From Acidobacteria bacterium RIFCSPLOWO2_12_FULL_54_10 (GTDB lineage Bacteria > Acidobacteriota > Terriglobia > 2-12-FULL-54-10): a stretch of 54,608 nt of DNA. This document shows, piece after piece, positions 4,731-33,676 of this stretch. The DNA lies in NCBI GenBank assembly GCA_001767075.1, contig MEKX01000019.1, positions 3,335-57,942 of the forward strand. Direction: 5' to 3'. The stretch's first letter is position 1. Each line of letters starts with the position of its first letter. Below the pieces are notes generated by a model that had not been told where the DNA came from, did not search any database, and was given only the letters and a program-made list of their open reading frames with translations. Made by a program: the position numbers and the translations under genes.

Positions 4731-5039
4731 CTACCATTTCATCAGATCAATTTCGTCCGCGTTCACGGTTTCTTTATTACGGAACAGGGCAATAATAATG
4801 CCGAGACCGACAGCCGCCTCCGCCGCGGCATCCACGATTACAAAAACGGCAAATGCCTGGCCAGACATATTCATCAATTGATTCGAGAAAGCCACCAGAT
4901 TGATGTTGACAGCATTCAAGATCAGCTCAATGGACATCAAGATAATGACGACATTGCGGCGCGTGAGAACCCCGATGGTTCCGATGGAAAACAGCGCCGC
5001 GCTGAGCATTACGTAATGTGCTGTTGTGATCTCGGGCAT
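4731..5039 (-). CDS. nuoK: NADH-quinone oxidoreductase subunit K
   Basis: 102 aa with 3 hydrophobic segments; [17 protein letters not shown] and AAAEAAVGL. Confidence 0.96.
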
Positions 5040-5078
5040 GTCTGAATCTCTAGGTTGGAAAGAATCCCGAACCCTTAT

Positions 5079-5594
5079 CTATATCTCCTTCTTGGCCATA
5101 AGCACAGCGCCCAAAATTGCCACAAGCAAAAGCAGAGAAGCGATTTCAAATGGAAGCAGGTAATCCTGAAATAACGCTACCGCCATTAACTCCGTATTGG
5201 GTTTGAGAGCACCCTGGCCCGGCTCAGCAAAAGCGAAGGAGCCAGCACCCCGCATGAGGAAGAATCCGAATTCGACCAGAACAACCAGGGTGCAGATTAA
5301 AGCGAGGCTCCACTGCCGGTTGAACTGCCGCTGCTTGGCGGCTTCGTCGAGATTGACCAGCATGATGACGAACAGGAACAGAACCATGATGCCGCCGATA
5401 TAGACAAGAATCTGGACTGCGGCGAGGAACTCCGCGTTCAGATGCAGGTATAAGCCAGCCACGCCCATGAGCGTAACGACCAGCCAAATGGCGCTGTGCA
5501 CGGCGTTTCGGCGCGTGATGGTCATGATGGCGCCGCCAAGAATGACGACCGCCAGCACATAGAAAAACAAACCGTTTAATATCGACTCAGGCAT
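5079..5594 (-). CDS. nuoJ: NADH-quinone oxidoreductase subunit J
   Basis: NAVHSA, AEFLAAVQILVYIGGIMVLFLFVIML and YLLPFEIAS motifs. Confidence 0.96.
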   Translation of the reverse strand: MPESILNGLFFYVLAVVILGGAIMTITRRNAVHSAIWLVVTLMGVAGLYLHLNAEFLAAVQILVYIGGIMVLFLFVIMLVNLDEAAKQRQFNRQWSLALICTLVVLVEFGFFLMRGAGSFAFAEPGQGALKPNTELMAVALFQDYLLPFEIASLLLLVAILGAVLMAKKEI

Positions 5595-25929: not shown

Positions 25930-27474
25930 TCATGGAAGAAGTTGTGGCATCTCCGTTATGGCTTCCCGAGCAATTATAACCTGAGGGTCTGCTTCCACTT
26001 CAGCGCGATTCCCCCTCTCCATACCATATACCAGATTAAATATTTCCATCTCAATGCGCATTTTCAAATAACCCTGGTTGCTCTTCCAATCCAGCGGCGG
26101 AACGCGCACGTCTGCTTCCGTTAAATATTGCAGAAAATCGGACATGATCCGATCATCCGCGGCAAAATCCTGCGCAACTTTGCCAATGCGCTCCAGGCAC
26201 TTCTGGGCAAAGTTGATATAAGCAGTACTTTGATCCAGCCAAACAGCCCAGTCGGATAATTGCCATGAGGAAGCGATCTGATCGGGGTGAACGCCTCCAG
26301 ATGAACTAAGAGATCGTCCCCGTTCACTTAATACCCCATGCACTTCATTTTTAAGGATACCAGCCAAAGCCGTGTCCGGCAAGGGGCGTTGTACAGAACG
26401 TCCCTTGGGGGTAAAATGGCGAGCCGTTGTTAAAACCAGCGCGGTTCCCTCACTTAAAGGCAAAACCGACTCAGCCACCCCTTTTCCAAAACTGGGCTGC
26501 CCTAAAATCCAGGCCCGGTCAAACTCCTGCAAAGCAGCAGCTAGGATTTCGGAGGCGCTAGCAGAGCGCTCATTGATGACGACAACAATCGGGACGACAG
26601 GAAATGCCGGGTCGGAAGAAACTCGATACTCCTGGCCGGGAATCGACCGACCCCGCAGGCTTACAACCAAACTACCTTTCGGGAGAAATAATCCAGCGAT
26701 GTCGACAGCAGCGTCCAGCGAGCCTCCCGGATTGTCCCGCAGGTCAAGAATAATCCCGGTGAGTTTCTTGTTCGCCTGCCAAGATTCTAAAGCAGAACGA
26801 ATTTCCTGCGAAGTGGCTTGTTCCATTCCGCTAATATGCAGATAACCGATGCCCGGTTCCAACAGAAACACGCGATCCACAGCCGAGCTTTCCAACTCGG
26901 CGGGGTTCAACTCGAAATCCTCTGCGACTACCTTGCCACTGCGCAGTACAGATAATGACGCCTTCCCTTTTTTTGCGTCCTGCAATACCTGAAGCAATTC
27001 CTGCAAGTTCAGATTAGCGATCCGTTGTCCATTGATGCGAAGTATACGGTCTCCTGGACCTAAACCAGCTCGCGAAAAGGGAGTTTCCGGCAGAGCTTGC
27101 AAAACCAGAACTTGTCCTGACTGAATACTGAGAACCGCTCCAAAACCTTGCTGCACCCCGCGCTGCTGGTCTTTAAGACCCCCAAACTGATCCGCATCAA
27201 GGAATACGGAAAATGGATCGAGGCTTGCTAATGCGCCACGGATAGCACCTTGATAAATCGTGGTCTGAGGATCGATGGGGTCGGCAAACTGGGTAGCGAG
27301 GAGGTGATAGACCTTTGTAATCATTTCCAAACTTTTTTGGATTTCTACATTTGTTGTCTGCGTATTCGCCGATTTGGGAATTTGGGCTGCAATGGGCGTG
27401 GAATGCACCAGTAGTATAATTGCTGTCGCTGTCCATATCAGGCGCTGTATTCTTTGTACTGCCGACCTTTGCAT
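25930..27474 (-). CDS. S41 carboxyl-terminal processing protease with a PDZ domain
   Basis: LDPFS, PDZ loop GFGAVL, ILDLRDNPGG, catalytic Ser in SASASEI and catalytic Lys in SFGKG. Confidence 0.92.
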   Translation of the reverse strand: MQRSAVQRIQRLIWTATAIILLVHSTPIAAQIPKSANTQTTNVEIQKSLEMITKVYHLLATQFADPIDPQTTIYQGAIRGALASLDPFSVFLDADQFGGLKDQQRGVQQGFGAVLSIQSGQVLVLQALPETPFSRAGLGPGDRILRINGQRIANLNLQELLQVLQDAKKGKASLSVLRSGKVVAEDFELNPAELESSAVDRVFLLEPGIGYLHISGMEQATSQEIRSALESWQANKKLTGIILDLRDNPGGSLDAAVDIAGLFLPKGSLVVSLRGRSIPGQEYRVSSDPAFPVVPIVVVINERSASASEILAAALQEFDRAWILGQPSFGKGVAESVLPLSEGTALVLTTARHFTPKGRSVQRPLPDTALAGILKNEVHGVLSERGRSLSSSGGVHPDQIASSWQLSDWAVWLDQSTAYINFAQKCLERIGKVAQDFAADDRIMSDFLQYLTEADVRVPPLDWKSNQGYLKMRIEMEIFNLVYGMERGNRAEVEADPQVIIAREAITEMPQLLP

Positions 27475-28907: not shown

Positions 28908-29888
28908 ATGAATTTGCGAGACAAAATCCTGAATCCCGCCTGCCCGCTTGTCTTCTATGAATTGATCCCGCCTAAACTGGGAGACAGCGCGGAACTGGAG
29001 CGATTGATAGAAACTTGCCGGGCCCTTTCTGGAAAAGTGGATGCGATCAATATACCGGAAATCGTGGAAGAGACCCGCTGGGGAGCCGGCGGGAAGAAAA
29101 CGCCAGAGCGTTTGGAGCCGCGGAGATTTGGAAGCGAGATTCAATCCGCCACAGGCTTAGAAACGATCATCAACAGGATCACGGTTAGAGAATCCGAAGC
29201 ATCACAGCGCAAATGGCTGCAGGAATGTTATCAGGACTACGCAATTCGCAATCTAATTCTGGTGGGAGGGGAGTCCAGTGATATTCCCTATCCTGGTCCA
29301 AGCGTTGAGGCCATGGCGAAATGCGCGCGGGAAGAGAAACTGGATTTTCTGCTGGGCGGGATTACCATTCCAAGCCGCTCCAGAGAAGGCACGCGCATCA
29401 GGGATAAACACCAGCAAGGGGTTGCATTCTTCACGACCCAGGTGCTGCTGGATTCCAATGACATCGTCGACCTGATCCAGGATTTGAATGGAATTGACGT
29501 GCGCATCATGCTCAGCCTGGCGCCTGTCAGCAATGTGCGTGATCTTCAGTTTCTGAAACACCTGGGGGTGGACGTGCCCAATAACGTGATGTGGGCTATT
29601 GAACAAGCTGGGGGAACTGAAAAAGCGTTAGAGAAATCCATTGCACTGGCCACCGGCATTCTGACCGACGTTTTTAATAATCTGCCCGAGCACCCGCCCG
29701 CATTGGGGATCAACATCGAGCAGATCACGCGACGGAATTTCCATGCCGCTCTTCAATTGCTGGAACAGATTGCGCCATTTTACAGGAGACATGTGCAGGC
29801 GCGTTTTCCGGCAGAAGGCAGCAGATGGCAATCCGAACATCTATTCGGACCTGCAAGAAGAGATCGGTCATCGCAATCGGCAGAATAG
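28908..29888 (+). CDS. Methylenetetrahydrofolate reductase, mycobacterial (Mfr) type
   Basis: YELIPP, INIPEIVEE, ILVGG, ITIPSR..EGTRI..K, FFTTQVL and LGINIE parallel the Rv2172c/MSMEG_6596-type MTHFR (compared from memory). Confidence 0.75.
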   Translation: MNLRDKILNPACPLVFYELIPPKLGDSAELERLIETCRALSGKVDAINIPEIVEETRWGAGGKKTPERLEPRRFGSEIQSATGLETIINRITVRESEASQRKWLQECYQDYAIRNLILVGGESSDIPYPGPSVEAMAKCAREEKLDFLLGGITIPSRSREGTRIRDKHQQGVAFFTTQVLLDSNDIVDLIQDLNGIDVRIMLSLAPVSNVRDLQFLKHLGVDVPNNVMWAIEQAGGTEKALEKSIALATGILTDVFNNLPEHPPALGINIEQITRRNFHAALQLLEQIAPFYRRHVQARFPAEGSRWQSEHLFGPARRDRSSQSAE

Positions 29889-29977
29889 TGGAAAATCGTA
29901 AGGGATAAAGGAATGCCTTTGTCCGCTATCGCTGAATTAATGGAAAAGATTCAATAACGCAGTGCTGGCAGCAGAAG

Positions 29978-30124
29978 TTATTGTTTCTGTTTAGACATTT
30001 CCCGGCGGTCAATTTCACTGCGTCGGCTCTCGGAACATCGCCGATCGGTTCCAATGTATTTCCTGGAAGACCTTCGGCGGTCCGATCCTCTGCGGTCCTG
30101 CTTGGTACGGTTATCGTTGATCAT
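29978..30124 (-). CDS. Small Arg-rich protein (48 aa) with DRR repeats; candidate c-di-GMP binder
   Basis: Translated by hand (below the track cut-off): MINDNRTKQDRRGSDRRRSSRKYIGTDRRCSESRRSEIDRREMSKQKQ. AGGA lies 8 nt upstream of the ATG, and there is a promoter upstream. Confidence 0.65.
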   Translation of the reverse strand: MINDNRTKQDRRGSDRRRSSRKYIGTDRRCSESRRSEIDRREMSKQKQ

Positions 30125-30203
30125 GGCCTGTTTCCTATTCTGATATGGTATGGAACCGCCACCATAAATGAAGCTGGCAAATTCCGCATGGAATAAAACC
30201 CGG

Positions 30204-30233
30204 ATTATATACGATTACGGCAGGAAAAGTCAG
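30204..30233 (-). promoter_or_regulatory. sigma70 promoter of the small Arg-rich ORF
   Basis: CTGACT (30233-30228)-N18-TATAAT (30209-30204) on the minus strand. Confidence 0.55.
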
Positions 30234-30272
30234 GGGGGCAAATGCAGCAGGTGGTTCCGTTAGCAGACTAAA

Positions 30273-30770
30273 CTACCAAGAACTGTAGGGTTCGCCAGAC
30301 AGGCTATTCAGAGATGAGCCACTATGCACATCCACGAGGCCCGGCGATAATTGATCGGGACTCATCAGAACGGTATCTTCAAAAACAGGTTCCCATGTTG
30401 TATTGGAGCCGGTAAAAGGGTCATTCGGGAGCTGGCGAATATATCCCTCGCTAACCAAATTCTCAAGGTCCTGCGGCGCCTCTTGTTTATCGAGCGTGTA
30501 CTGATCAATCAACGAACGCATGGTGAAAAGATTATCCCTGAGAACGGCTTCTTTAGAGCTAATAATGGAATTGCGGTAGATCGGAGCGGCAATGGAAATC
30601 AGGATCAAGATGATCGATATTACAACCACCAATTCGATGAGCGTGAATCCGCGCTGAGAGCGTGATTCCTGTATAAGCTTCCGTCTGGCACGCGCAAGAA
30701 AACCACTTGGGAATAGGCGAATGCAAGACCGACAAGTCTTTTTAGCAGATGCTGTCTGAAATTTCACCAT
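30273..30770 (-). CDS. Type II secretion pseudopilin (GspG-like)
   Basis: Prepilin cleavage site QRG|FTLIELVVVI; LRDNLFTMRSLIDQY and LPNDPFT. The start overlaps the upstream stop codon. Confidence 0.88.
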   Translation of the reverse strand: MVKFQTASAKKTCRSCIRLFPSGFLARARRKLIQESRSQRGFTLIELVVVISIILILISIAAPIYRNSIISSKEAVLRDNLFTMRSLIDQYTLDKQEAPQDLENLVSEGYIRQLPNDPFTGSNTTWEPVFEDTVLMSPDQLSPGLVDVHSGSSLNSLSGEPYSSW

Positions 30771-31234
30771 TCGGAATACCTGCTGTCATCAAGCGCTTCG
30801 CCCTGACTTCTGGAATAAACATCGTATACATTCTGGCCGCCCCAGCCCGTAGAATCGGGACGATCCTGGTAAGACCTTAAACCCCATTCCGTGGAATTGG
30901 TCATGGGATCGCGGGGAATTCGGCGCAGAAACTTGAGAACCTTGCCGTCCGGTGAATTCGCCATCGGAATCCCTTCCACCAGCGCTTCAAGGTCAGGCGG
31001 GTAGCCTTCCGTCATCAACTCCACTTGAATCAAACCGCGATCAGCAGAATCTTTGTACCGGTCAATCGCTTCGCGAATCTCCCGCAGAGCATAACGAAGC
31101 TCCTTCTCGCGCTCCCGCTTGACTTGTACTCGTGCCAATGGCAACGCAGCTACGGAGAGAATAGACAAAATGGCCGCAGCAACAATCAGCTCGATGAGCG
31201 TTAATCCATTTTCTTGTGATTTCTTCCGAATCAA
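30764..31234 (-). CDS. Type II secretion pseudopilin (GspG-like)
   Basis: ENG|LTLIELIV; ELRYALREIREAIDRYK and FLRRIPRDPMT. Confidence 0.88.
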   Translation of the reverse strand: MIRKKSQENGLTLIELIVAAAILSILSVAALPLARVQVKREREKELRYALREIREAIDRYKDSADRGLIQVELMTEGYPPDLEALVEGIPMANSPDGKVLKFLRRIPRDPMTNSTEWGLRSYQDRPDSTGWGGQNVYDVYSRSQGEALDDSRYSEW

Positions 31235-31253: not shown

Positions 31254-33509
31254 TTATTGGACAGTGACTGTTGCCTGTGTCCCAGGGACGGGAATTTTCG
31301 AACTGGATGAACTGCCAACCAACGATGAAGTGATCTGCAATGGCGAAACGCCAGACTGCGCAGCTTGGAAGATCAGGACAGCGAGCGTGCCTTGCCCGGA
31401 TACTGGTTCGCTCTTTGGCGGACGAGATAACGTTACCTGCAACTTCCCAGAATTTTCTTCTGCTCTCTCAACGATGGTTACCGGCTGGTTCCCTTGGCCA
31501 AGGAAACCGCCGCTGGATACGCGCAACAATTGTAATATCGCCGGGTCGTATTGAACTTCTAGAGAAACAGTGGAAACGTCATTCGCATTTTCGACCATCA
31601 GAGGCAACTCGACCGTCTCACCAGGCTTTGGGTTCGCGACTGGATTATTCAACAGGAGTTTCGCGCCGGGACCGGGTACTTGCGCAGGCGTATCTACCGG
31701 GGAAGCTGGTGTTTCCACCGGAACATTTTCCCCGACCGCTAGCGGAGGCTGTGTGAGCCGTAATCTTACCGACCCTTCGGTTCCGGTATCCAGCGCCATC
31801 CGGTTGAGATCGGAAATTTCCATGCGGCGGACCACATAAGGACGGAGGACGATGAGAATTTCATTTTCAGCAATCGTGTCACTCACATTGGAAAACAGAT
31901 ACCGGAGCAATGGAATAGAAGACAGTCCGGGAATGCCGCTAACGGATTCCACGGTTTGCCTCTGGAAAATTCCGCCCAGGATATTGATTTCGCCTTCTTT
32001 CAAGCGGATGTCATGTTCAATGACGCGCTGCCCGATGACCGGCTGCGTAATGCCGCCGATGTTCTTCTCATTGGTGACGGCTGAAATTTCCACTCGAACC
32101 TTCAAGGTGATTTCACGCTCGGCGTGAACCTTGGGCGTGATGTCGAGATTCACGCCGACATCGGTGTATTGAAATTGCGTTTGCACAAGCGAGCTTACGA
32201 CGGCTCCGCCGACACCGGGCTGATAACTGCCCGTAGCAATTGGGATGCGGTCGCCGATGCGCAAAGTAGCCTTTTGACCATCAGAGGCTCGAATTTCCGG
32301 TCGCTGGAGAACCTTACTGTTGGCATCGCTCATCAGAGCGTTTAGCTGAGCCCCGGGGAGGATGATGGAAAAATCCGCTGCACTGAGTGAACCCAGGCGG
32401 TTCAGAGGTAAGTTAGGGCTCGTGGTCTGACTAGTTCCGGTTCCGGTTGTGCTGCCGCGAGGCGTCGGGTTAATCGACGTTGAGATGCCTGCCCCGCCGG
32501 AAGAAGTAGGGAAGAATCCTAATCTTTGCGCTTCATCACGGCGGATTTCCATGACCGCGACATCCACAACGACCTCAGGCTTTGCCTTATCAATATCACG
32601 AATGATTTTTTCAGCCAGCGCGACTTTGTCGGGGGTATCGCGCACTAAAATAGCATTCATGGAATTGATCTGCTGAATGCGGCGGGTTTCCAGCAAAGTG
32701 CGAATCGCTGTAACCACTTCCGTCAATTCCTGGGGCGTGATGGTATTCGACAAATAAAATGTCTTCAGAACCTGCTGCTCCTGCTCACGGCGCTTGACCG
32801 CGGTGTCTGGTATGACCAGAATGGTATTGCGAGTCAGCGTCTTCCAGAATGATTTCGAAAGCAGTGAGAGCTGGTCCAGGGCCTCTTCCAAGGTCACATT
32901 TTCCAGTTCTACAGTCACCCGCTGGGCGGTAAAGTCCGGGTCAAAAAGAACATTTATGCCGGCAAGACGACCGATGGTTGTATAAACGATTTTACTGTCG
33001 TTAGTTACCCTTAAGTTAATTGGCTCCCTTGATAAAGGAATCAGCAAGGGAGGCCCCTGAGCGTCCTCAACTGAAGGCATCCCCTCATCAATTGCAGGAG
33101 GATTACTCTGCGCTTCGATCAATTCCCTGGTGCGGTCCATTTCCTGCTGAGCAGCCGGATTGGTGGTGTCGATTTTGGCGGCTGTTTCAAATTCAGCCAG
33201 AGCTTCCTGCAAGCTTCCTTGCAAGCGCAGATCAAATCCGCGCTCCATATGCAATTGCCCAGCAATAAATCGAGCGCGGCGATAAGCGATATCGAACTGC
33301 GGGTTGCTAGGGTCAACTTGAAGTGCTTTTTCATACTGGGCAAAAGCTTCATCAAAATCCTGCCTAGCCTCGGCTTCGCGCCCTCTATTGAATTCCTCAT
33401 CACCTTGTGCGGCAAAGGCCAGAGACGAGAATCCGCATGTCAGTAACAAGGCAAGACAGACTACGTTAAATATTTTGAATCTATCTCGCTGAAACCATTG
33501 CATCGGCAT
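31254..33509 (-). CDS. Secretin (GspD/PilQ family) with N-terminal TPRs and a C-terminal cohesin-like domain
   Basis: Signal peptide, TPR helices, KTFYLSN N-domain, KATLRIGDRIP..FQYTDVGVNLDITPKVH, IPGLSSIPLLRYLF, and C-terminal QYDPAIL..VSGQGTLA. The start is uncertain (33503, 33509 or 33605). Confidence 0.9.
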   Translation of the reverse strand: MPMQWFQRDRFKIFNVVCLALLLTCGFSSLAFAAQGDEEFNRGREAEARQDFDEAFAQYEKALQVDPSNPQFDIAYRRARFIAGQLHMERGFDLRLQGSLQEALAEFETAAKIDTTNPAAQQEMDRTRELIEAQSNPPAIDEGMPSVEDAQGPPLLIPLSREPINLRVTNDSKIVYTTIGRLAGINVLFDPDFTAQRVTVELENVTLEEALDQLSLLSKSFWKTLTRNTILVIPDTAVKRREQEQQVLKTFYLSNTITPQELTEVVTAIRTLLETRRIQQINSMNAILVRDTPDKVALAEKIIRDIDKAKPEVVVDVAVMEIRRDEAQRLGFFPTSSGGAGISTSINPTPRGSTTGTGTSQTTSPNLPLNRLGSLSAADFSIILPGAQLNALMSDANSKVLQRPEIRASDGQKATLRIGDRIPIATGSYQPGVGGAVVSSLVQTQFQYTDVGVNLDITPKVHAEREITLKVRVEISAVTNEKNIGGITQPVIGQRVIEHDIRLKEGEINILGGIFQRQTVESVSGIPGLSSIPLLRYLFSNVSDTIAENEILIVLRPYVVRRMEISDLNRMALDTGTEGSVRLRLTQPPLAVGENVPVETPASPVDTPAQVPGPGAKLLLNNPVANPKPGETVELPLMVENANDVSTVSLEVQYDPAILQLLRVSSGGFLGQGNQPVTIVERAEENSGKLQVTLSRPPKSEPVSGQGTLAVLIFQAAQSGVSPLQITSSLVGSSSSSKIPVPGTQATVTVQ

Positions 33510-33676
33510 ATGGCGAAACCTCGCTCTAAAGGCCCGGACAATATCTTTTCCGGCAGGGGGTGTGGACTTACCTTCTCGGAATTTTACCATAGTTATCGAG
33601 CACACCCCTTATGTATTATCGGCATAGCGAGCCTGTCAACCCGTTTCCGAGAAAAGCACATAGAAACTAAAAGATA

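Follow-up and report, generated by a model that had tools for sequence, protein, structure and literature searches.

Does a 48-residue, arginine-rich open reading frame (ORF) on the minus strand of an acidobacterial contig encode a real protein and, if so, what might that protein bind? The ORF lies in a stretch of 54,608 nucleotides from Acidobacteria bacterium RIFCSPLOWO2_12_FULL_54_10 (contig MEKX01000019.1, positions 3,335 to 57,942), the whole of which is referred to here as the window. A first-pass annotation of the window had proposed that the ORF specifies a natural sponge for cyclic di-GMP (c-di-GMP), based on a short motif resembling that of the Cle proteins. Our comparisons across genomes indicate that the ORF is a real, conserved gene, that its product is by alignment and profile score a divergent member of a large, unnamed and mostly unannotated family, and that the core of this family, as aligned, is the same linear motif as the arginine-rich region (ARR) of Caulobacter CleD (DRR-x11-[R/K]R, with a Tyr and a Gly in the loop). 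The explanation that we find best, and favor by a little, is that this free-standing Arg/Asp-rich microprotein would be a small c-di-GMP receptor acting via its CleD-like motif. The parts of the locus that carry the argument are as follows.

29978..30124, minus strand: gene for the 48-aa microprotein, with its TAA stop codon at 29978..29980, placed from the ORF listing, its relatives and its profile score versus shuffles.
30029..30082, minus strand: core of the peptide, D15-R-R-R-SSRK-Y23-I-G25-T-D-R28-R29-C-S-E32, which aligns to D154..D172 of CleD with a linker one residue shorter.
30133..30136, minus strand: AGGA ribosome-binding site, 8 nt before the ATG (30124..30122) and invariant in a three-genome alignment.

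The ORF was recovered with exactly the peptide quoted in the first-pass annotation, and the AGGA site and all of the sequence elements listed there are present: 13 Arg, four DRR (residues 10-12, 15-17, 27-29 and 39-41), one SRR (33-35), two RxxxR (R12-R16 and R17-R21) and the Cle-like unit Y23-I-G-T-D-R-R. The net charge is approximately +9 (13 R, 4 K, 5 D, 3 E). Searches with Pfam and NCBIfam gave no match for the window peptide or for seven other members of the family (eight tested). In a six-frame search of 41 related genomes only weak matches were obtained, the best of them small ORFs of the same layout in three genomes (G002, G003 and G005), where the reading frame, the start and the residues are kept. 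The DNA alignment of three genomes shows the start codon and frame kept along with the AGGA, and the flanks are divergent. Pairwise codon alignments against G002, G003 and G005 contain 18-23 identical residues out of 41-48, of which 8-17 are coded by different codons, and synonymous sites are saturated (pS 0.50-0.87 vs pN 0.30-0.46). By this comparison the small gene is under protein-level selection, and the loss of conservation that the first-pass annotation had named as grounds for abandoning the ORF is not what the relatives of its taxonomic family show.

A profile built from 18 representatives without the window peptide or its near kin (A3) gave the window peptide 21.7 bits. This score was reached by none of 5000 residue shuffles (maximum 10.7) and by none of 5000 shuffles in which the [DES]RR triplets were kept whole (maximum 20.8), and since it tops all 10,000 shuffles the ORF is beyond chance. 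The exact peptide is absent from a collection of 15 billion proteins. It is present letter for letter in the ESM Atlas, where the relatives are 'hypothetical protein' clusters only, with scores of 0.90-0.91, a range that shuffled proteins sometimes reach. The ORF is also identical in contigs of four other metagenome DNA runs, the sole difference over 29800..30350 being a T>C at 29963, 15 nt past the stop codon, in two of the runs; because the ORF match is exact, these contigs are uninformative on selection. An antisense ORF (29981..30196, plus strand) was considered and rejected, the codon pattern fitting the minus-strand frame.

Profile searches placed the peptide in its family. A profile of four sequences found 26 unnamed small proteins, and a profile of 15 sequences (A2), scored against 1.84 billion cluster representatives at 50% identity, found 634 clusters at E<=1e-3, 19 of them at <=1e-10. 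Relatives occur in Acidobacteriota as well, the group in which the first-pass annotation had recommended a search for small ORFs with repeated [DE]RR and [YF]xGx[DE]RR. Motif and spacing counts given below were made on the best 150 of the 634 A2 representatives, 123 of which are no longer than 100 aa. We define the family as proteins of 40-100 aa, the length of most members, with no other domain and with repeated [DE]RR around one Y-x-G-[P]-[DE]-R-R, and the window peptide fits this definition in three family alignments (A1, A2 and the 62-sequence A5) and by its A3 score. The consensus, M..ERRSGKDRRSGxDRRKFNDPNYKGPERRSGxDRRSGKDRRK, is built of x-G-x-[DE]-R-R hexads, with a Tyr in front of one of them, and the core reads DRR[KR]-x5-Y-x-G-P-E-R-R. 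Invariant positions, in window numbering, are R11, R12, R17, Y23, G25, R28, R29, R35, R40 and R41. Of 137 cores, 114 have Pro directly behind the core Gly, 6 have Ser and 5 have Thr, and an acidic residue (E/D) comes next in 134. A second tightly conserved type of small protein, of 56-71 aa (P0011-P0013 and P0016-P0026), is apparently a sister family with another layout: YRGPERR, then DRR units, an 'EEIRFE' stretch, DRRSGKDRRK and a C-terminal G-W.

A pattern scan derived from A3, with one genome per species, returned 207 stretches, of which 131 were confirmed as relatives and 80 were kept; 63 of these are free-standing ORFs of <110 aa and 17 are fused to other sequences. The record titles of these loci name Atribacterota, WOR-3, Nitrospirota, Deltaproteobacteria/Syntrophaceae/Desulfobacteraceae, Acidobacteriota, Ignavibacteria, Bacteroidia, Cloacimonadota, Stahlbacteria, and Beta- and Alphaproteobacteria, and the cultured carriers are Sphingopyxis granuli NBRC 100800, Sphingopyxis sp. 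PET50, S. solisilvae R366 and Stakelama marina LXI357. The small gene is accessory: a match (E<=1e-3) was found in 6 of 14 genomes of the taxonomic family, including the window's own, and in 15 of 401 sampled genomes of the phylum; five nearly complete genomes of the taxonomic family lacked one. The window's genome holds no paralogue beyond the ORF itself. A phage family was rejected, since viral contigs gave a single marginal locus. One typical stand-alone member (L069) lies on a contig titled 'archaeon isolate', for which mis-binning seems likelier than archaeal origin; the contig also carries a member of a BLAST cluster that includes the HD-GYP-type proteins found beside four other loci (L054, L056, L059 and L070).

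The link to c-di-GMP comes from the match to CleD. The ARR was described as a tandem [Y/F]xGP[D/E][R/K]R, and as an isolated peptide it is able to bind c-di-GMP; of 302 ARR homologues 294 were alphaproteobacterial, 91% were CheY-like and 5% were without a known domain (PMC5677366, Nesper 2017). Without ligand, a 36-aa CleD peptide is unfolded, and via DRR-x11-(R/K)RxxD it wraps around an intercalated c-di-GMP dimer; a CleD-derived 19-mer, CSP4, has a dissociation constant (Kd) of 177 nM, and alanine scanning singles out D154, R155, R156, Y163, G165, R167, R168, R169 and D172 (PMC7382256, Hee 2020). Against 177,635 PDB sequences at E<=10, the A2 and A5 profiles each gave one match only, 6sft_A, the CleD peptide solved in complex with c-di-GMP and entered as 'Two-component receiver protein CleD' (E 0.0012). 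The alignment sets the family, geDRRkfndpnYkGPERRsg, over GPDRRRFNSADYKGPRKRKA, and in longer form the family consensus DRRKFNDPNYKGPERR stands beside CleD DRRRFNSADYKGPRKR. A sequence relationship to a proven ARR is therefore detectable for the family profiles directly, and for the window peptide via A3. Among the 150 representatives, [DE]RR-x11-[RK]R is present in 101 and the full DRR-x11-[RK]RxxD in 12. Of 122 cores, 91 have the CleD spacing of 6 residues between DRR and Tyr, and 15 have the window's spacing of 5. The information content per position over the 150 representatives correlates with the alanine-scan Kd of CSP4 (PMC7382256; Spearman 0.69, p 0.001, n=19; rho <=0.32 in 22 slid registers), a correlation that is partly circular, which counts against giving it full weight, because the register was set by an alignment that rewards shared conserved residues.

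Genes into which the module is fused point in the same direction. Scoring of 8000 candidates yielded 251 longer proteins at E<=1e-3, of which 120 were listed; Pfam domains were found in 18 of the 120, and 9 of these 18 are PAS-GGDEF (3), Rec-PilZ (2), CheA (2) or MshEN+T2SSE (2) proteins. The domain orders are PAS-GGDEF-module (P0191, P0196 and P0221), Rec-module(x2)-PilZ (P0185, with the related P0246 carrying one module core), Hpt-module-CheA core (P0179 and P0250), module-MshEN-T2SSE ATPase (P0281) and GAF-module-MshEN-T2SSE ATPase (P0275). Two loci recovered by the search pattern of the family (L097 and L109) have the Cle architecture itself, a Response_reg domain with a C-terminal tandem YFGPDRRR-x5-YKGPERR, the first being named 'response regulator [Kaistiaceae bacterium]' at its source. 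Other loci carry the module with two Rec domains (L099), as HisKA-HATPase-module-Rec-HD_5 in the window's own phylum (L021), as Rec-PilZ-module in G002, a genome of the window's taxonomic family (L117, profile E 3.9e-9), and as module-SAF-RcpC/CpaB (L086); PurS and zinc-ribbon fusions also occur. Taken at the level of domain architecture, the fusions suggest c-di-GMP and motility signaling. G002 has two paralogous Rec-PilZ genes: in L117 (C171, 796-1641) the module is in frame at the C-terminus, and in L014/L113 (C125, 2297-3300) it lies in another frame over the 3' end, by frameshift or assembly error, with PilZ and GGDEF genes just upstream.

Among the stand-alone genes, neighbors were scanned as the nearest upstream and downstream ORFs of the 63 loci (120 proteins and 10 more distant cluster representatives). 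A c-di-GMP-type nearest neighbor was found at 12 loci: PilZ at 6 (L048, L050, L053, L059, L060 and L061), HD_5/HD-GYP-type at 4 (L054, L056, L059 and L070) and GGDEF at 3 (L084, L087 and L104). The PilZ genes are on the same strand, overlapping by 4 nt or lying <=75 nt downstream, and in five of the genomes with such neighbors, of 3.1-5.2 Mb, PilZ matches number only 13-25. In the genome of the window there are 11 matches to GGDEF and 17 to PilZ, and five other carrier genomes have 4-16 GGDEF matches. The remaining loci have lineage-specific neighbors (MgtC and S41 peptidase in WOR-3, ABC transporters in Atribacterota), with no secretin or pilin among them. At two Nitrospirota loci (L084 and L104, ~4900-5220) the module and two copies of a helix-like stretch (..ELTERIRGLLRELRSGKDRR..) share a single ORF, which lies between a 1018-aa spermine-synthase-domain gene and a GGDEF gene.

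A number of observations weigh against a c-di-GMP receptor. The window peptide alone gave no match in the PDB at E<=10, and the E-value of the profile match to CleD is modest. The window does not show the tandem [Y/F]xGP[D/E][R/K]R: it has a single Cle-like unit, as the first-pass annotation had cautioned, with Thr for Pro, and the preceding unit, R-R-G13-S-D-R-R, retains the Gly and DRR and lacks both the aromatic residue and the Pro. Nor does it show DRR-x11-(R/K)RxxD, having DRR-x10-RRxxE instead. Across the family the acidic residue after the RR is at +4 in 98 of 137 cores and at +3 in 27, and in CSP4 the D172A change carried a 10-fold cost (PMC7382256). Where CleD has R167, the family has Glu or Asp; this differs from CleD itself and fits the wider ARR consensus [YF]xGP[DE][RK]R. 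CSP4 expressed alone in P. aeruginosa was undetectable (PMC7382256), and free short peptides may thus be unstable. In the genomic context, all 12 loci with c-di-GMP-type neighbors are titled Nitrospirota or Nitrospiraceae, making them related and equivalent to about three independent arrangements; by title there are ~21 stand-alone Nitrospirota loci, and none of the other ~42 has such a neighbor. GGDEF presence is non-discriminating, being found in 5 of 5 carriers and in 8 of 14 control genomes. Many fusions have no c-di-GMP link, namely those to HNH (3), Cro+Mitofilin-like (4), ParA/MinD (1) and aldo-keto reductase (1), and ~90 of the 120 listed longer proteins belong to a family of 340/385/391 aa without a Pfam domain. 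The latter proteins end in the module and are mostly from Nitrospirota and related metagenome records (P0180, P0217, L072, L078 and L100).

Several of these deviations have measured counterparts in CSP4. P166A raised its Kd from 177 to 346 nM, approximately 2-fold, and single deletions of S160, A161 or D162 raised it to 338-439 nM, or 2-2.5-fold; deletions of R157, F158 or N159 raised it by about 6-7-fold (PMC7382256). Because the P166A and the milder loop deletions cost so little, the deviations of the window peptide appear mild, and the Thr-for-Pro caveat of the first-pass annotation holds as to the substitution and loses most of its force as to the consequence. The preceding unit of the window has G13 where CleD has the Gly of V-G-P-D-R-R, and family members generally have a canonical second unit (Pro in 114 of 137 cores) and a first unit that likewise reads x-G-x-D-R-R. 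The idea of a free-standing Cle-motif peptide gains considerable support from relatives with the canonical Y-x-G-P-E-R-R, from the CleD-only PDB match and from the signaling fusions, and what it implies for binding stays a prediction. Binding of c-di-GMP by the family as a whole appears somewhat more likely than not; for the divergent member in the window, the balance between binding and not binding seems to us even.

A mechanism can be proposed by analogy with CleD. The 48-aa peptide is probably unfolded, and the apo form would be disordered and would fold around a c-di-GMP dimer. The arginines of the DRR (16 and 17) and of the RR (28 and 29) would read the Hoogsteen edges of the guanines, Asp15 and Glu32 would read the Watson-Crick side (N1/N2), Tyr23 would stack on an outer guanine and the turn would be formed by Gly25. 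CleD lacks the extra [DE]RR units that flank the core here, and these might engage additional ligand or a partner. The peptide could keep free c-di-GMP low by buffering it, or it could be an adaptor that depends on the ligand and serves PilZ, HD-GYP or GGDEF neighbors, as in Nitrospirota, and possibly the secretin and pseudopilin genes of the window. A pure sponge role, the form in which the idea was originally put, we consider unlikely. The failure to detect free CSP4 in vivo (PMC7382256) hints, by analogy, that stability of the peptide could itself depend on the ligand.

Among known systems, the family shares with the Cle ARR a short, linear, Arg/Asp-rich sequence with the core DRR[RK]-x5-Y-x-G-P-x-R-R, which on the CleD side is known to work as an isolated peptide that is unfolded without ligand (PMC7382256, PMC5677366). 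It differs in several respects. In Cle proteins the ARR is a C-terminal extension of a receiver, whereas the window has a free-standing ORF with its own ribosome-binding site and stop and no Pfam domain; Cle has a tandem Y-x-G-P, whereas the family has one such unit and others of the form x-G-x-[DE]-R-R without the aromatic residue, and one to three extra [DE]RR units flank its core. The acidic residue after the RR is mostly at +4, and the family occurs in many phyla, in contrast to the almost wholly alphaproteobacterial, CheY-dominated set of Nesper (PMC5677366). The window copy differs further by its x10 spacer, its Thr for Pro and its Glu for Asp. PilZ receptors likewise hold an intercalated c-di-GMP dimer with Arg-rich stretches, as is predicted for the window peptide, and PilZ genes are neighbors or fusion partners of the module. 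The PilZ analogy that the first-pass annotation drew from RxxxR did not survive: the window peptide gave no Pfam PilZ match at E<=0.1, is too short for a six-stranded barrel and lacks a beta-barrel and [D/N]xSxxG, its two RxxxR being a by-product of the DRR repeats, and a PilZ-like reading was rejected. The R169-x-x-D172 turn of CleD binds the c-di-GMP dimer like the RxxD of the PleD GGDEF I-site (PMC7382256), and the window has R29-C-S-E32 at this place, with Glu for Asp and no GGDEF fold; most of the family places its acidic residue one position later. The phage sponges Tad1, Tad2, Acb2 and Acb4 share the idea of a small protein that sequesters a signaling nucleotide. These are reportedly folded oligomers directed against defense signals, whereas the family is chromosomal, predicted to be unfolded and almost absent from viral contigs.

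How do other explanations fare? That there is no gene here, and that a chance intergenic ORF or a conserved DNA or RNA element has been misread, is hardly credible. The ORF is very short and biased in composition, its exact peptide is missing from the 15-billion-protein collection and no RNA run is listed as holding the stretch, but the use of different codons for identical residues with saturated synonymous sites, the conserved frame, start and ribosome-binding site, the hundreds of homologous small ORFs across phyla and the profile score beyond all shuffles stand on the other side, as does Rfam, which gave 0 matches at E<=1 over 29500..30700. A chance ORF is thereby refuted as far as comparative sequence analysis can refute it. 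A more serious alternative, though one we still regard as improbable, is that the ligand is not c-di-GMP, the peptide being a general binder of polyanions or guanine (RNA, DNA, the ribosome, polyphosphate, (p)ppGpp, pGpG or another cyclic nucleotide) and the CleD likeness a convergence of Asp/Arg pairs. The charge of the window peptide and its lack of a predicted domain would suit such a binder, as would the fusions to HNH nuclease, Cro-like helix-turn-helix, ParA/MinD and zinc-ribbon proteins, which are nucleic-acid-related contexts, and the placing of the acidic residue one off the CleD RRxxD in most of the family. Against it, an Asp or Glu precedes the Arg almost always, halving the charge, a pattern that classical Arg-rich RNA-binding motifs are not known to show. 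The invariant Tyr-x-Gly at a fixed distance from the DRR argues for something specific, and the sole PDB match is a c-di-GMP-bound peptide. Among the nucleotides tried with CSP4 (GMP, GTP, pGpG, c-di-AMP and two cGAMPs in addition to c-di-GMP), only c-di-GMP was bound (PMC7382256), and the module is fused to GGDEF, PilZ, HD-GYP and MshEN proteins and to Cle-type receivers.

A further alternative ties the gene to its surroundings, which comprise the following.

30273..30770 and 30764..31234, minus strand: two pseudopilin genes directly upstream of the small gene (Pfam N_methyl, E 6e-9 and 3e-7).
31254..33605, minus strand: gene for a secretin that carries TPR repeats at its N-terminus and a cohesin domain at its C-terminus (Pfam Secretin 2.8e-38, Cohesin 3.7e-12, and TPR).
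28908..29888, plus strand: MTHFR-like gene, downstream and convergent on the ORF.

The small gene does sit downstream of the secretin and pseudopilin genes, as first described, and it might be their dedicated accessory, for example a cytoplasmic regulator of assembly whose repeats mediate contacts between proteins, whether or not c-di-GMP takes part. G000, G002 and G003 share the order secretin, two pseudopilins, small gene, although G003 has different genes downstream, and the module is fused elsewhere to a Flp-pilus CpaB/RcpC protein (L086) and to the two MshEN+T2SSE ATPases (P0275 and P0281). However, the three genomes belong to one taxonomic family and the synteny may be inherited, the small gene of G005 adjoins an outer-membrane beta-barrel gene instead, and a secretin or pilin is the nearest neighbor at 0 of the 63 stand-alone loci in other phyla. 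The window cluster has no secretion or pilus ATPase beside it (the same secretin gene is present in G002 and G003), with Opp ABC-transporter genes found upstream of the secretin, and the small gene has a promoter-like site of its own. We therefore give a dedicated accessory role only a small chance, and the suggestion that the peptide tunes the adjacent machine found no support beyond the synteny in this one taxonomic family. A c-di-GMP receptor is still the reading that we prefer.

Receptors for c-di-GMP are notoriously hard to predict. The motif itself and free peptides engineered from the ARR are already known, the ARR having until now been regarded as a special trait of CheY-like proteins from Alphaproteobacteria and as an engineered peptide tool. 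In full-text literature searches, which returned largely listings and abstracts, neither a wide natural family of free-standing ARR-like microproteins nor the wider fusion repertoire was found described, and the available portion of PMC12943098 does not treat the family. Whether free-standing ARR microproteins are widespread natural c-di-GMP receptors or buffers in at least 10 bacterial phyla, with the same module of 30-40 residues as a portable c-di-GMP-sensing plug-in for CheA, MshEN/PilB-type ATPases, diguanylate cyclases, Rec-PilZ, HNH nucleases and the 340-391-aa family, is a proposal to which we give equal odds either way. If it is true, nature made a 'c-di-GMP-sequestering peptide' long before engineering did. 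Should binding of c-di-GMP by the family be real, a new class of effectors or buffers would emerge from hundreds of tiny genes in many phyla, most of them uncalled, a short searchable motif would flag control of CheA, of pilus and secretion ATPases, of nucleases and of proteins of no known function, and the natural variation would offer a ready-made library for better sequestering peptides.

The flanking signals of the small gene are of lesser weight. Two upstream elements named in the first-pass annotation can be located.

30204..30233, minus strand: sigma-70-like promoter match CTGACT-N18-TATAAT, putative, 10/12 matches in a consensus scan.
30181..30194, minus strand: 5-bp hairpin ATTCC-N4-GGAAT in the putative leader.

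The promoter match was found by our scan as it had been given, and the 1-kb region holds 3 promoter-like sites versus 0.9 +/- 0.9 in shuffles. No terminator-like site was found in the scan of the region, and co-transcription with the pseudopilin genes is for this reason possible. The hairpin is present as claimed, but the folding energy of the 91-nt leader is within chance (z -0.56, a value matched by 52 of 200 shuffles) and the hairpin is probably not a feature; the 3' region 29890..29985 gave a z of -1.6. A role as a leader peptide or attenuator was rejected, because the next downstream gene, the MTHFR-like gene, is convergent. Finally, the window has a gene for an S41 (Ctp-type) peptidase (25930..27474, minus strand) at a distance of about 2.5 kb from the small gene, as does G002 (L011 8275-9954), and an S41 peptidase gene is directly upstream of the small gene in three WOR-3 loci (L041, L042 and L052), an association that may be due to chance.

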